From an uncultured archaeon (GTDB lineage: Archaea; Thermoproteota; Nitrososphaeria; Nitrososphaerales; Gagatemarchaeaceae), in the NCBI GenBank assembly GCA_963817525.1, contig CAWFOU010000001.1, positions 288,001-352,000 of the forward strand: a stretch of DNA of 64,000 nucleotides, in the 5' to 3' direction. Position 1 is the stretch's first letter. The number at the start of each line of letters is the position of its first letter. This document shows, piece after piece, positions 348-35,019 of this stretch. The position numbers and the translations under genes were made by a program. Under the pieces are notes generated by a model. That model ran no database searches. It was not told where the DNA came from and saw only the letters and a list, made by a program, of their open reading frames with translations.

Positions 348-2285
348 TCAAGCCGCCTTCTTGTCGACCCGCCTCCTGATTATCTTTCCTCCTCCGGCGG
401 GGAGCATGCGCATCACATCATCGAGGCTGAGGCTGACCTTGGGGTTCGCGTAGGGCGTCAGTTCGTGGAGCACCTTCTTCGCCGTGTCGGACGGCTTCTC
501 CCTGCTCGGGACAAGCGCCACGTGTCCCTTGGCTGCCCTCATTATCGCCTCCTCGGGTCCCGAGATCACCCTTCCGCCCTCGTCTACGCCGACCGCCAGC
601 TCCACCGCGTTCTTCGTGACGAAGTTCTTCTTCCCGTTTATGGCGAACGAGCCGTGGGCTAGGAACTCACCGCTCGGCCCCGCCGTCCCTACCTGCCCCG
701 GGCTGACCCAGTAGGCGTCGGCGGCTCCCAACCCCGTCTTCCACGCGCTGCTGAAGGTCGCGGTCGCCTTCGCCACCTCCCTGACCTCCTCCCCCGTCTG
801 CTCGCTCCCGCCTTTGAGGACGAAGAACGGTGAGCCGAAGAGGTCAGCGTGGTAGACGGTGTCGCCCTCTTGGAGGTGCCTCCGTATCAGGATCGTGTTG
901 CTCTGCGCGTCGCGCCCCCCGATAGCGAGCTTCCCGCTGGACGTGAAGAACCACCTGAACTTCTCATACCACTCCTTCTTCGCTCTCGAGAGCGGGATCG
1001 CCTTCGCGCGGGCTGTCTCTCCCTTCCCGCTCTCCCTCTTGAGCTTGGACCGCAGCCCCTTCTCCGCGGTGTCAATGTCCTGGATCTCCCGTTCCGCCCG
1101 CTTCGCCCTGTCGAAGATGGCCGATGAGATGGAGGCCTGCCCTTTCTCGGCCAGCGCGTCCAGCGAAGCGAGGAGGTCGCTCGGGAGGACCTTCGCCGCT
1201 CGGGCTATCACCAGGGCCTGCTCCGCGTCGGGGGCGGCCCTCGCCAGAGGCGCCAGCTTCCTCAGCTCGGCCGAGAGCTTGGTGAGCCCCGCCTTCTTCG
1301 ACTCGAGGTCGGCGATGGTGGCCTTGTACTCCAGGGCCCGCCTCTCGTGGGCGTCGATCTTCGCCTCCCCACCGGCTTCGGCCCTCTCTGCCCGGGCGAC
1401 GTTCTCCTCCTCCGTGGTCAGGAGGTCTGAGAAGAACAGCTCGTCCAGCAGCGGGCTCAGCGTCGGTGCGGACTGGACGACATCCCTGCTCCTGGGATTG
1501 GTCACCATCACCTCGACCGTCTTCTCGTCCGTCCTCACCAAGCAGGGTGACGGGTTGGATTCGATGCTGGCTAGCATGTCCTTGACCGTTGCCATGACTC
1601 GGTCGACTTCGGCGTCGGGGATGTCGGTCGAGTCCTCCTGACCGTGCGAGATGCGCGCCAGTATTTCGTCGACGTACCTCCTTGGGATCGATAGCCCTCT
1701 CCCGAGGGCGCGGCCCAGCGTCTTCTCTTTCGCCAGGGCGCCCGTCAGGTCTTCACGGGTGAGCGTCTCGAGGGATGCCCGCGTCTGCGGAGGCGGGACA
1801 TACGGGTAGCCCTTGGCGAGCTTCCTCGCCCCTGTCTTGACCTCGCGGAGCGCGAGGGCTATCTTCCCGTCGGGCCCTGCAAGGACTATGTTACCAGGCG
1901 GCATCAGTTCCAGTATGAGCTTTAGGCGGTCGTCTCCTTTGCCCTCGAATTCCAGGATTAAGACCCTGTCGAGGTCGAACTGAGTGACTGACTCGAGCCT
2001 AGCCCTGAGCAGGTTCGAACGGAGCGAGGTCGTGAACTCCGTGGTCTCGACCCGGGCGGGCTTCTCAGTGACCCAAGCGCCGAGCTTGGGGGAGAGAACG
2101 AGGGAGACCTCAGTCGACTCGCCCTCCGCGCCGCCTGACTTTCTCATCCTGAGCAACTGGCTCTCCCCTACGGAATAGATGTTGGAGACGTATGTCTCTG
2201 CAAGGGCCTTGGAGAGCTCCTTTGCGAGGACTCTGAACTCCAGCCCTGAAAGCGAGCCCTTTGACTTGTCTGAAATGAGCGACAT
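348..2285 (-). CDS. rqcH: Ribosome quality-control protein RqcH/NEMF (NFACT family)
   Basis: NFACT N-term (QFDLDRVLILEF, LILELMPPGNIVL) and NFACT-R C-term (WYEKFRWF, GGRDAQSN, HADLFGSPF, GEFLAHGSF). Confidence 0.9.
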   Translation of the reverse strand: MSLISDKSKGSLSGLEFRVLAKELSKALAETYVSNIYSVGESQLLRMRKSGGAEGESTEVSLVLSPKLGAWVTEKPARVETTEFTTSLRSNLLRARLESVTQFDLDRVLILEFEGKGDDRLKLILELMPPGNIVLAGPDGKIALALREVKTGARKLAKGYPYVPPPQTRASLETLTREDLTGALAKEKTLGRALGRGLSIPRRYVDEILARISHGQEDSTDIPDAEVDRVMATVKDMLASIESNPSPCLVRTDEKTVEVMVTNPRSRDVVQSAPTLSPLLDELFFSDLLTTEEENVARAERAEAGGEAKIDAHERRALEYKATIADLESKKAGLTKLSAELRKLAPLARAAPDAEQALVIARAAKVLPSDLLASLDALAEKGQASISSAIFDRAKRAEREIQDIDTAEKGLRSKLKRESGKGETARAKAIPLSRAKKEWYEKFRWFFTSSGKLAIGGRDAQSNTILIRRHLQEGDTVYHADLFGSPFFVLKGGSEQTGEEVREVAKATATFSSAWKTGLGAADAYWVSPGQVGTAGPSGEFLAHGSFAINGKKNFVTKNAVELAVGVDEGGRVISGPEEAIMRAAKGHVALVPSREKPSDTAKKVLHELTPYANPKVSLSLDDVMRMLPAGGGKIIRRRVDKKAA

Positions 2286-2348
2286 CTCCCTCGACCGCGA
2301 TTTTGGAGGCAGGCGAAGCGAGAGTCTTAATGGTTTGGCCTTTAGCGA

Positions 2349-32193: not shown

Positions 32194-32883
32194 TCAGGGC
32201 ATCTTCGCCGAGATCAGCGCGTGGTCCTTGTCAAAGGGGCGCAGGTCGATCACCCTCTCTACGACGAACCCCGCCTCGTTCAGCTTCTGCGCCTCCTCCC
32301 TGAACACTAGCTTGGGGTCCTTGAGCTGGTCGATGCTCCTGGCCTTCACGATGAGAAGGAGCCTCCCTCCCTCCTTGAGGTGCCTCTTCGCGTTCTCCAT
32401 GGCAATCTCCGTCTGGTCCCTCTGCGCGATGTCGCAGTAGACGACGTCCATCTTCCCGAACTCCCCGAACCTCTCCGTCTCCCGGGCGTCCGAGATGAAC
32501 GGGATGACGTTCCCCCTCGCCTTCGCTACCTTCTCGAGGAACTCCCGGCCCACGCGGGCGGACATCTCCACGCCGACCACCAGCCCCTCGCCCCCCACGA
32601 TGTCCGAGACGTGCGAGGCCGTGGTGCCCGTCGAGGCGCCCAGGTAGAGGACCTTGTCCCCCGCCTTGATGATGTCAGGGTCCAGCTCGCCCTTGAGGAT
32701 GGCTCCGGCGAGCTTGCTCCTGTAGGGGTCCCAGCTGCGGTACTCACTGCCGTGGATCCTCAGAAGGTCTTCGTCGTATACCCTATTGCCCGGGACGAGG
32801 TTTCTTGTAAAAACGCTTGTCCTTCCGTCCTCCCGGTTTCCTCTCCGCCCCCGGCCTTCCATAACGAGGACGTTGGTTGTCAT
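32194..32883 (-). CDS. flpA: Fibrillarin (box C/D 2'-O-methyltransferase)
   Basis: WDPYRSKL, VLYLGASTGTTASHVSD, DIAQRDQ, KARSID, PFDKDH. Confidence 0.96.
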   Translation of the reverse strand: MTTNVLVMEGRGRRGNREDGRTSVFTRNLVPGNRVYDEDLLRIHGSEYRSWDPYRSKLAGAILKGELDPDIIKAGDKVLYLGASTGTTASHVSDIVGGEGLVVGVEMSARVGREFLEKVAKARGNVIPFISDARETERFGEFGKMDVVYCDIAQRDQTEIAMENAKRHLKEGGRLLLIVKARSIDQLKDPKLVFREEAQKLNEAGFVVERVIDLRPFDKDHALISAKMP

Positions 32884-34024
32884 TTCGGCGGAACTCTCTT
32901 CGCTGCTCGGGTCGCGGCGGCGGTGGCTCCTTATACTTTATCTTGATCTCGGCGAGCCTCTTCTCGAACAGGCCCGTCAGCTCGTTGGCCTTGGTCCCCC
33001 TGTAGTAGTCGATCCGGGCGGCGATGGCTATCTTGTTGGCCAGGGTCCTAGCGATCTTGCCCCTCTGCCACTTCGGGGCCATGTGGACCGCCTCGTGCTG
33101 GAAGAGTATGCCGTGCTTCGGGGGCCTCGACCCCGTCCTTATGGCCCTGAAGAGCGCCTTCTCCGCGCCCAGTACCTGTATCGTGCTCGCGGGCAGCCTC
33201 GCCATCCTCTCGAGCCCCCCGGCCCTCGCGATGAGCCTCGCGCCGATCGTTGCCCCTGCGACCTGCGTGATGTTGGGGGCGATCTTGTTCATGGTCGAGT
33301 CGACGGTCTCTGCCATCTTCTCCCTCTCGTTGGCGGTCTTGACCGCGAGCTCGGCCAGGCCGACGATCCGATGCATGTCCTTCTCGGAGATCGTCCCTCC
33401 CTTGGACTTCTCCGACGCCAGCATTATCGCCTCTGCCTTCTTGCCGGCGTAGCCCTGCTTCTCAAGCGCCTCTTCGTCGAAGGTCCCGCGCCTCCCTATC
33501 TCGATTATCAGCTTGGCGAGGGCGAGGTTGTCCTTCAGGATGTCCTGCAGCTCGGGGAAGTGCAGGCTATACCATTCCATCGTCCTCTCCGTCGTGATAT
33601 TGAGGAAGCGGTCGAGCTCGTCGAGGGCCTGGATGGCGTTGACGAGGTGCAGGTCCTCCTTGGAGGAGGCCTCGCTCACCTCGTGCTCGGCCGCCGCGAT
33701 CGCGCGGGCCCTCGCCTCTCCTATGGCGCTCCCAGCGTCTCGAGCGAGCCCCGCCTTTGCCATTATCGCAGCCTTCCTAGAGTCGAGGTCGTCGCGCTCC
33801 TCGTCGGTCGCTATCGACGTCTCGATCCCGAACTCCTCCATCTTCTCCTTCGCAGGCATGCTGGAGACCTTGAGGCGGGAGATGCCCTTGCGCTTGACCC
33901 CCTCGGCGACCCTCTCCAGCTTCTCATCCCTCTCCATCGCCTCGGCCCTCTCCGAGACGAGGACGTCGTCCCCCTGGACGACTATGAACCCCGCCTCCGT
34001 CTCGTAGAGAATCGGCTCTGGCAA
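32783..34024 (-). CDS. nop5: Box C/D RNP protein Nop5 (Nop56/58)
   Basis: EWYSLHFPEL, APN, PASTIQVLGAEKALF, PKHGILFQ, RGKIAR..AARIDY; start estimated at TTG 34024. Confidence 0.95.
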   Translation of the reverse strand: MPEPILYETEAGFIVVQGDDVLVSERAEAMERDEKLERVAEGVKRKGISRLKVSSMPAKEKMEEFGIETSIATDEERDDLDSRKAAIMAKAGLARDAGSAIGEARARAIAAAEHEVSEASSKEDLHLVNAIQALDELDRFLNITTERTMEWYSLHFPELQDILKDNLALAKLIIEIGRRGTFDEEALEKQGYAGKKAEAIMLASEKSKGGTISEKDMHRIVGLAELAVKTANEREKMAETVDSTMNKIAPNITQVAGATIGARLIARAGGLERMARLPASTIQVLGAEKALFRAIRTGSRPPKHGILFQHEAVHMAPKWQRGKIARTLANKIAIAARIDYYRGTKANELTGLFEKRLAEIKIKYKEPPPPRPEQRREFRRNDNQRPRYGRPGAERKPGGRKDKRFYKKPRPGQ

Positions 34025-34153
34025 GAAAAATTCGATTCCAGCGTCCGCGGGGCACGGATAAAGGTTGTCGCTGCGGGTTGAACTCACGCTCTTCGCCAAT
34101 CGGCGGCTGAGGTCCTTCGAACCGACGTGGGCGGTTAAATCATCTGATTCGAT

Positions 34154-34793
34154 GTGTTGATGTTGGAACTGAGGTTCTGTGGGTCCTGTGGAAGGGCGCT
34201 GGAGAGGACGAAAAACGCCAAGTTTTGCGACAGGGCTTGCTATGCGCAGGCAGTCAGAGATGGCATCACCTCGAACAATGGCCGCTTTCGAAAGGGCAAC
34301 CCGTCCCCCAAAAAGGCAGGACGCTCGAATCTTGGGTCGGGGAGGAGAGAGCTCAAGAGATCAGAAACAGGATGTCTCAATCGTCGAAAGGGAAGGCCCC
34401 TTGGCTTAGAAGGTTGAACGAAGATGCGGAAGTCTTGGCGAAGAGAAAGGCTTCACGAAGATTCCACGAAGCCACCGTCCAAGAACTCGTCAAGCAATTC
34501 AGGAAGCTTGGTTGGAAGTGTTACACGCTGTCCGAATACGTCAGGGAAACGAGAACACCTGACGCGATTCTGTTTGACGGGAGAGAGCTCGTTGCGCTGG
34601 AGTGGAGCTGAAGAAGAAATGGAAGCCCAGCGCTGAGTTGATGACCCGGCGCCTGACCGATCTGAACGACCAATCGAGGTTCTTTGATAGGACAAGCCTG
34701 GTATTTCCAGACGAGAGGACTGAGCTGACCAAACAGATCCCCTCTTTCGTGGACGAGATATTGACTCACAAAAGATTATATCGGGACTCTTGA
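34154..34793 (+). pseudogene. Homing-endonuclease-like gene (Zn finger + NUMOD3-like + PD-(D/E)xK-type nuclease), two frameshifts
   Basis: CGSCG..FCDRAC; FRKGNPSPKK/GRTLE..EIRNRMSQSSKGKAPW; TPDAILFDGRELVALE/VELKK; shifts near 34316 and 34602; lower GC. Confidence 0.7.
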
Positions 34794-34823
34794 TGCTCGG
34801 AATCGGAGGACTGAAAACAAAAC

Positions 34824-35019
34824 ATGCCGACCCACGGGAGTCAGCAGCTAAGAGCAAGTCTTACTGCCTCCAATCACTAAGGCCGGAAAAGTTCGCAGCC
34901 AAACGCCGAAAATTGAGGGAAAGCCCCACAAGGGTAAGATCCCCAAGGTCAGGAACACCCGGACCTACGTGAAGAGATTCACACTAAAGAGAAAGCCCGG
35001 ACAGAATTGGAGACTTTAG
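34824..35019 (+). CDS. rps30e: 30S ribosomal protein S30e, intron-containing: join(34824..34842,34874..35019)
   Basis: Spliced product [54 protein letters not shown] (54 aa); absent from the ORF track. Confidence 0.93.
34843..34873 (+). other. 31-nt BHB mRNA intron in rps30e
   Basis: GGAG-TC^A-GCAG-c-TAAGA-gcaag-TCTTA-CTGC-CTCC-AA^T; 4-bp helix GGAG/CTCC with two 3-nt bulges. Confidence 0.9.

Follow-up and report, generated by a model that had tools for sequence, protein, structure and literature searches.

Why does an archaeal genome that encodes a recognizable ribosomal protein S30e (eS30) show no open reading frame for it? The window analysed here, that is, the whole stretch of 64,000 nucleotides, carries such a gene, rps30e, at 34824-35019. 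The list of open reading frames contains only a wrong-frame ORF of 60 aa there (34790-34972), so the gene was missed, as an earlier sequence-only reading had pointed out. Read from its ATG without splicing, the locus gives MPTHGSQQLRASLTASNH*, a peptide of 18 aa. The sequence-only reading had likewise given an 18-aa peptide and had attributed the break to a 31-nt insert, which is indeed seen at 34843-34873. On the evidence below, it is highly probable that 34824-35019 is a functional, single-copy eS30 gene of a soil-type thaumarchaeon, an uncultured member of Nitrososphaerota, and that an archaeal endonuclease-type intron of 31 nt, here called intron 1, breaks its coding sequence behind the first 19 nt. 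From its sequence, the rps30e mRNA is predicted to be cleaved, ligated and translated in the spliced form. Within one archaeal family, two mini-introns are variably present in rps30e, and intron 1 is one of them.

Identity and surroundings of rps30e

The gene and its neighbours have the following positions in the window.

34824-35019, plus strand: rps30e, with ATG at 34824 and stop TAG at 35017-35019
34824-34842, plus strand: exon 1 of rps30e, comprising the ATG and five codons (MPTHGS) and the first base of a Leu codon
34843-34873, plus strand: intron 1, 31 nt, of relaxed BHB (BHL-like) type
34874-35019, plus strand: exon 2 of rps30e, starting with the remaining two bases of the Leu codon, followed by 47 codons (P0001) and the TAG stop
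34770-34783, plus strand: putative promoter element of BRE/TATA type, AAAAGATTATAT..., some 45 nt upstream of the ATG
34805-34809, plus strand: putative Shine-Dalgarno-like GGAGG, 14 nt upstream of the ATG
32194-32883, minus strand: fibrillarin, upstream of rps30e
32783-34099, minus strand: Nop5, upstream of rps30e

The frame starting at 34876 yields P0001, a peptide of 47 aa. This product of exon 2 alone matched the Pfam family Ribosomal_S30 (PF04758) with 31.9 bits (cut-off 27) over profile positions 7-57 of 58, and a six-frame search of the genome with PF04758 gave 32.7 bits at the same locus. In a scan of exon 2 only against the NCBIfam S30e equivalog NF006817, P0001 scored 52 bits (E 4.4e-14); the whole-protein cut-off is 75, and a lower score is expected because the query is only a piece of S30e. 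Among database proteins from uninterrupted genes, P0002 is the closest; it shares 98% identity with exon 2 and continues without a break across the junction region. The assembly comprises 2.82 Mb in 15 contigs, with 95% completeness and 8.75% estimated contamination. The six-frame search across all of it found S30e at 34824-35019 only. The gene assignment made in the sequence-only reading is thus borne out, and an uninterrupted rps30e elsewhere in the genome, which that reading had named as possible counter-evidence, was looked for without a second S30e locus appearing.

The gene lies on the largest contig, near nop5 and fibrillarin as had been noted from the sequence, both of them upstream on the minus strand; an Elp3-like gene also flanks it. 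MAGs with the labels Nitrososphaerota, Nitrososphaeria or Thaumarchaeota have fibrillarins that share 82-90% identity with this one; for Ca. Gagatemarchaeum the value is 67%. In an alignment of 16 same-genus loci, a TTATATA/TTAAATA column is aligned in 15, and GGAGG/GGTG-type motifs occur in relatives at the aligned Shine-Dalgarno position.

Several other features were observed around the gene. An ORF of 128 aa between nop5 and rps30e (34225-34611, plus strand) has no Pfam match. The Elp3-like ORF downstream is listed with a TTG start at 35007, which overlaps the last 13 nt of rps30e (35007-35019), and its true start may be further downstream. Between the nop5 region and rps30e, positions 34602-34658 (plus strand) matched two archaeal C/D-box sRNA families of Rfam below threshold (sR30, 14.9 bits; sR36, 14.6 bits; E about 0.3); these matches are far under the Rfam gathering scores and could be due to chance. 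No tRNA genes were found within the window.

Structure and covariation of the predicted intron 1

The interruption is composed of the following elements.

34837-34840, plus strand: exon strand of the central helix H (GGAG), pairing with 34868-34871 in the MFE fold
34841-34843, plus strand: 5' bulge TCA, with the predicted cut at 34842/34843
34844-34867, plus strand: inner hairpin h' of the MFE fold, GCAG-C-TAAGA, loop GCAAG, TCTTA-CTGC
34868-34871, plus strand: intron strand of the central helix H (CTCC), by MFE fold and covariation
34872-34874, plus strand: 3' cleavage triplet AAT, with the predicted cut at 34873/34874, unpaired in the MFE fold

In the MFE structure of 34824-34890, the GGAG/CTCC helix is followed by the 3-nt TCA bulge, the stem GCAG/CTGC, a single bulged C, the stem TAAGA/TCTTA and a loop of 5 nt; base for base, it is the fold drawn in the sequence-only reading. 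A strict hBHBh' motif has a 4-bp central helix and two 3-nt bulges on opposite strands, each closed by a further helix. Intron 1 has the central helix, the 5' bulge and the inner helix; its 3' triplet is not closed by a helix, and beyond AAT no outer helix was found, one G-C pair being possible as read from the sequence. Because the 3' site is without an outer helix, the motif is best described as relaxed and BHL-like and not as a strict hBHBh'. It corresponds to the relaxed form of helix, one bulge and inner helix that is accepted by (alpha-beta)2 enzymes. Of the BHB motif originally proposed, the central helix, the TCA bulge and the hairpin are present, the helices being supported by covariation, and the AAT "bulge" has to be given up in favour of a BHL-like 3' site. 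No further copies of the intron 1 sequence were found in the genome.

In the motif layout described in PMC2738675, one strand of the central helix belongs to the 5' exon and the other to the intron's 3' end, and both cuts fall between the second and third bulge residues. Applied to intron 1, this rule places the cuts at 34842/34843 and 34873/34874, which coincide with the homology boundaries and restore the frame. The cut sites chosen in the sequence-only reading agree with the rule and with the gap against intron-free relatives. Those relatives are eight same-genus genomes with an uninterrupted rps30e (G001, G002, G010, G011, G015, G017, G020 and G022). In the alignment, exon 1 is collinear with the 5' end of all eight genes. 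The 31 nt of G000, G008, G014, G018 and G021 form a single clean gap against the uninterrupted genes, and the exons on both sides are collinear base for base. The boundary of the insert is unambiguous, since the bases flanking its two ends differ.

Taken alone, the sequence folds no more stably than expected by chance (34824-34890: z = -1.39; 20 of 200 shuffles equally stable). It is the comparative evidence for intron 1, and not its single-sequence fold, that goes beyond chance. Among all 12 intron-1 carriers, which belong to five genera, 96.5% of the pair cells pair, against 26-58% with slid partners; a smaller set of six carriers gave 96.2% against 27-55%. Two-sided changes occur in 7 of 13 pairs (16 cells), including one pair of the exon-intron helix. 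None of 500 shuffles reached the covariation score, a control that overstates significance because the carriers are relatives, and the slid-partner comparison is the fairer one. The central helix is paired in 100% of cells in the 12 carriers. In the inner hairpin, 94.9% of cells are paired and 6 of 9 pairs have two-sided changes. In G298, G357 and G417, exon 1 has GGA and not GGG as its Gly codon, and the intron strand is CTTC instead of CTCC; this change from GGAG/CTCC to GAAG/CTTC indicates that exon and intron covary. The exons are intact and conserved in all 12 carriers across the five genera.

Distribution of the two predicted introns

Intron 2 occurs in relatives only and is not present in the window. 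It lies 47 nt downstream of the intron-1 site (gene coordinates) as a 19-nt insert between the Lys and Val codons of the AGK/VR motif. Its structure is a full hBHBh', in which the outer helix has 3 bp, the central helix 4 bp (GGGG/CCCT in genus g1), the bulges 3 nt each, and the inner stem 4 bp with a loop of 4 nt. Variants of 20 nt (G024, G375, G417, G422 and G424) and 22 nt (G099) keep this geometry with other stems. When the cut rule of PMC2738675 is applied to the 19-, 20- and 22-nt forms, the AGK/VR codons are restored and the boundaries match those of intron-free genes. Across nine sequences, 98.9% of cells pair, against 40-60% when slid, and two-sided changes occur in four pairs, two of them within the exon-intron helix. 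The folds of four intron-2 regions are not more stable than shuffles (z -1.5 to +0.4), and the MFE structure of the G087 intron is a different fold, its centroid alone showing the hairpin and three of the four central-helix pairs. Intron 1 measures 31 or 32 nt and intron 2 measures 19, 20 or 22 nt, while the exons are unchanged; lengths in different classes modulo 3 fit excision of the inserts and do not fit a single frameshift.

In family f1, 36 genomes were examined, and 22 of them have at least one intron in rps30e.

Intron 1 only: 9 genomes
Intron 2 only: 10 genomes
Both introns: 3 genomes (G021, G024 and G417)
Neither intron: 9 genomes
No state assigned: 5 genomes (G005, G013, G019, G023 and G423)

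The queries used found no S30e match in G005, G013, G028 and G031, with G013 queried by Pfam and DNA only. The rps30e gene is cut by a contig end in G019 and G023, and G423 gave no match to the intron patterns. G201, with a full-length profile row and no pattern matches, was counted as intron-free.

Exon-anchored pattern scans covered 401 genomes of the class in 20 families, with G169 entering as one genome in the class tallies only. Intron 1 was found in none of 389 genomes of families other than f1. Besides f1, intron 2 was present in two of the five genomes of genus g66, family f18 (G087 and G099); this genus belongs to another order, and a matching public record is labelled Conexivisphaerales. 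Reversed-pattern controls gave no matches. Among all species-representative genomes, the intron-1 pattern has 34 carriers, mostly labelled Nitrososphaerales, Thaumarchaeota, Nitrososphaerota or "archaeon", with five labelled "uncultured Nitrosopumilales" and one "bacterium". The contig with the last label (L130) bears a thaumarchaeal intron-1 rps30e allele, and the bin has probably been given a wrong label or is a mixture. Among the species representatives, 28 matches to the intron-2 pattern were obtained, of which 20 are true introns. The other eight, from two Thorarchaeota, a Thor-like "uncultured archaeon", Promethearchaeota, Ignicoccus pacificus, Methylarchaceae, one Nitrososphaerales genome and an unrelated Prevotellaceae stretch, are false positives and were rejected as uninterrupted genes or noise. 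A pattern match in G078 is likewise a false positive. Outside Nitrososphaeria, these patterns found no S30e intron among the species representatives; as they fix particular codons, they can miss divergent carriers. In-frame introns suspected from internal stops in G202, G118, G091, G066 and G223 turned out to be ordinary genes in which the profile had overrun the terminal stop.

Both introns affect how S30e is annotated. A search of 41 genomes of relatives gave a Pfam S30 match above the cut-off in 26. Nine of the remaining 15 carry intron 2 (19-20 nt): six of these scored 18-22 bits, and three had no match at E <= 0.01. The suggestion that S30e reported as missing in related genomes is hidden in the same way was therefore right in substance, the main cause being a different, second intron. 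Genes with intron 1 only exceed the Pfam cut-off in the six-frame search, yet gene callers give them wrong N-termini. The public calls P0005 and P0006 start within intron 1 and read its 3' end as protein, P0014 has exon 1 in the wrong frame, and P0029 is truncated; these mis-annotations are caused by intron 1. The exon-2 frame in the window contains no ATG, GTG or TTG.

The inner-stem type TGCC/GGCA of intron 2 occurs in genus g1 and in G087 (L091:1611-1657), and the type CACC(A)/(T)GGTG in genus g20 and in G099 (L090:1466-1515), each spanning two orders; the exons of these genes follow their own lineages. Convergence within a very small sequence space, an ancient polymorphism or transfer of the intron could account for the shared stems. 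Every intron-1 gene starts with ATG-CCG (ATG-CCG-ACC), or with TTG-CCG in G347, and the family genes without intron 1 (g1 and g20) start with ACG-CCA (ACG-CCA-AC), except that of G022, which has ATG-CCA. In genus g1, three C-terminal sequence types were distinguished, each with mixed intron states. The linkage of intron 1 to the start allele, together with the mixed states in each C-terminal type, suggests repeated loss and gain, or allele exchange. From these two patterns and the stems shared by two orders, we tentatively consider that the 5' 70 nt of rps30e may be a hot spot in which mini BHB introns are repeatedly gained and lost, and possibly exchanged between lineages, by reverse splicing or allele recombination, although at present this is the less likely case.

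The start codon itself varies. At the codon aligned with the ATG of the window, 14 of 20 same-genus S30e genes and three genus g20 genes have ACG. Two Nitrosopumilaceae-like genomes have GTG there, G087 and G347 have TTG, and the g66 genes of G099 and G104 have CTG. In G010 (L007:1477-1662), an in-frame stop lies seven codons upstream of the ACG, and the six intervening codons include no ATG, GTG or TTG; for this reason, translation probably initiates at the ACG (or CTG). The public gene call for P0002 uses an in-frame ATG five codons upstream instead.

Proposed splicing, alternative explanations and known systems

The genome contains two separate EndA-domain genes, each with N- and C-terminal domains. 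EndA alpha (187 aa; L031 1453-2016, minus strand) has its best matches to the catalytic chains 3p1z_B, 2cv8_A, 3ajv_B and 2zyz_B of two-subunit enzymes with solved structures (E 3e-42 to 9e-38) and keeps the Tyr/His/Lys positions; EndA beta (L032, within 1468-2295, minus strand) is without the catalytic His. K42 and K44 of EndA alpha align gap-free with K44 and R46 of the loop of A. pernix (3p1z_B), and this "Crenarchaea-specific loop" confers cleavage of non-canonical and BHL motifs (PMC3241643). RtcB is encoded in the genome as well. The host is thus predicted to have a two-subunit, broad-specificity EndA together with RtcB. A feature of the RtcB gene was noted at L069:2716-4155 (minus strand; G000 contig C1, outside the window). 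The gene is a single open frame of 996 codons, whose Pfam match is split (profile 1-50 and 49-426) by an in-frame insert of 480 aa. The insert gave a weak Intein_splicing match (26.2 bits, under the cut-off of 35.8) and is probably an intein.

Splicing of the pre-mRNA would proceed as follows. GGAG at the end of exon 1 and CTCC at the intron's 3' end would base-pair, giving the 4-bp central helix; together with the TCA bulge and the interrupted inner hairpin of 9 bp, this helix would make up a relaxed bulge-helix-bulge motif. The (alpha-beta)2 endonuclease would cut after the second base of the bulge and of the 3-nt stretch beyond the helix, and RtcB would ligate the exons. Ligation would restore the Leu codon and with it the conserved N-terminal motif of S30e. 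A degenerate 29-letter motif of the spliced junction matched no public metagenome contig, a result that is uninformative on expression.

Other explanations of the insert were considered. The ribosome might frameshift or bypass (hop) the insert, with the RNA structure acting as a stimulator and no splicing taking place. The insert is structured and, with its 31 nt, causes a +1 shift of the frame, and the exon-2 frame stays open for eight codons upstream of 34876 (an open frame of 55 aa); both would suit such recoding. However, frameshifting would add about 10 foreign residues within the most conserved S30e motif, and matching take-off and landing codons around the insert were not seen when the sequence was read. 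A constant recoding event also fits poorly with inserts that differ modulo 3 (31 and 32 nt; 19, 20 and 22 nt) between identical exons, with a covarying helix of BHB geometry that links exon 1 to the 3' end of the insert, and with a BHB cleavage rule that falls exactly on the homology boundaries of both introns. Recoding is therefore very unlikely. Gene decay, in which the insert is disabling and S30e is dispensable or being lost in the lineage, is suggested by the unspliced RNA, which codes for 18 aa only, and by the many Euryarchaeota without S30e mentioned in the Caldiarchaeum genome paper (PMC3082918). The probability of decay is lower still: rps30e is the sole copy in the genome, its exons are intact and conserved in 12 of 12 intron-1 carriers from five genera, the length and pairing of the insert are kept through compensatory changes, the stringent pattern is present in 34 species-representative genomes, and the promoter and Shine-Dalgarno-like motifs are kept.

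The insert might also be removed from the RNA by machinery other than EndA and RtcB, for example another structure-specific RNase or self-cleavage, and the 3' site outside a canonical bulge could be taken to favour this. A length of 31 nt is too small for any known self-splicing intron. Moreover, the 4-bp helix, the 3-nt bulge and the cut after the second base are the substrate geometry of EndA, intron 2 is a full BHB, and EndA alpha bears the loop lysine that permits cleavage of BHL motifs (PMC3241643), which makes other machinery about as improbable as recoding. The source is a MAG with 8.75% estimated contamination, and an assembly or sequencing artefact might be suspected on that ground. 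It is scarcely credible as an explanation, given that 12 genomes from independent assemblies and 34 public species representatives contain the insert, with lineage-specific compensatory differences. An endonuclease-type intron in a functional rps30e accounts for these observations best, and the comparisons below refer to this reading.

No report of an intron in an S30e gene was found in the full-text literature, subscription journals and supplements being outside reach. A BHB-type intron in the crenarchaeal cbf5 pre-mRNA was reportedly described by Watanabe in 2002. Since that year, cbf5 of Crenarchaeota has been the one confirmed archaeal gene with endonuclease-type introns in its coding sequence; with rps30e, a second gene joins it, this time from Nitrososphaerota, another major lineage. 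The two sites, at which close relatives naturally have alleles with and without an intron, provide a ready-made system, which could address intron gain and loss and what the splicing endonuclease needs outside tRNA. In the annotation of dozens of genomes, this universal marker protein either does not appear or has a false N-terminus, and this affects presence/absence tables of ribosomal proteins and marker-gene phylogenies. By extension of the tentative hot-spot reading above, introns of the endonuclease type might occur in archaeal coding sequences far more often than the one textbook example suggests, with annotation based on ORFs concealing them systematically.

According to the available text of PMC2738675, pre-mRNA splicing had been confirmed as of 2009 for no gene other than cbf5, and that of PMC7714728 gives cbf5 of Crenarchaeota, besides its own 5' UTR case, as the only reported mRNA intron as of 2020. 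The rps30e intron would work like the cbf5-type mRNA intron but is a different one. It is not the orthologous intron, which is located in cbf5 at the catalytic Asp codon, because the gene is different; no intron was found in the TruB_N domain of the host's cbf5, which matches profile positions 1-149 unbroken. The table in PMC2738675 shows no cbf5 intron for Cenarchaeum and Nitrosopumilus. Both introns are small, of the endonuclease type and located within coding sequence, and the cbf5 intron likewise has a mostly unconventional or relaxed BHB that is cut between the second and third bulge residues (PMC2738675). Both are also linked to a hetero-oligomeric EndA, show patchy gain and loss among relatives and lead annotators to mis-predict the gene (PMC2738675). 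In contrast to cbf5, rps30e encodes a ribosomal protein, belongs to Nitrososphaerota and has two intron sites 47 nt apart in a gene of 165 nt, with an intron 2 of only 19-22 nt. Splicing of cbf5 has been confirmed by cDNA (PMC2738675), whereas that of rps30e is predicted here from the genome sequence.

The crenarchaeal and thaumarchaeal pre-tRNA introns of the BHB/BHL types share motif classes, enzyme type and loop-lysine dependence with the rps30e intron (PMC3241643); a BHL mini-helix from a pre-tRNA of the thaumarchaeon C. symbiosum served as a substrate for Hirata in 2011 (PMC3241643). Unlike these introns, that of rps30e lies in an mRNA substrate without a tRNA body, and its junction must keep the reading frame. 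The 5' UTR BHB intron of HVO_1309 in Haloferax volcanii is also a case of mRNA processed by the tRNA splicing endonuclease, and it differs in being located in the untranslated leader of a euryarchaeal mRNA instead of in coding sequence (PMC7714728). As the HVO_1309 intron lies in the leader, it does not hide the ORF. In eukaryotes, HAC1/XBP1 mRNAs are cut at stem-loops by a non-spliceosomal endonuclease and joined by RtcB-type ligation, and the short intron that is removed shifts the frame. That endonuclease is Ire1, which recognizes a different motif, and the process is stress-regulated. The splicing proposed for rps30e is similar to that of HAC1/XBP1 and differs from it in the endonuclease and the motif.
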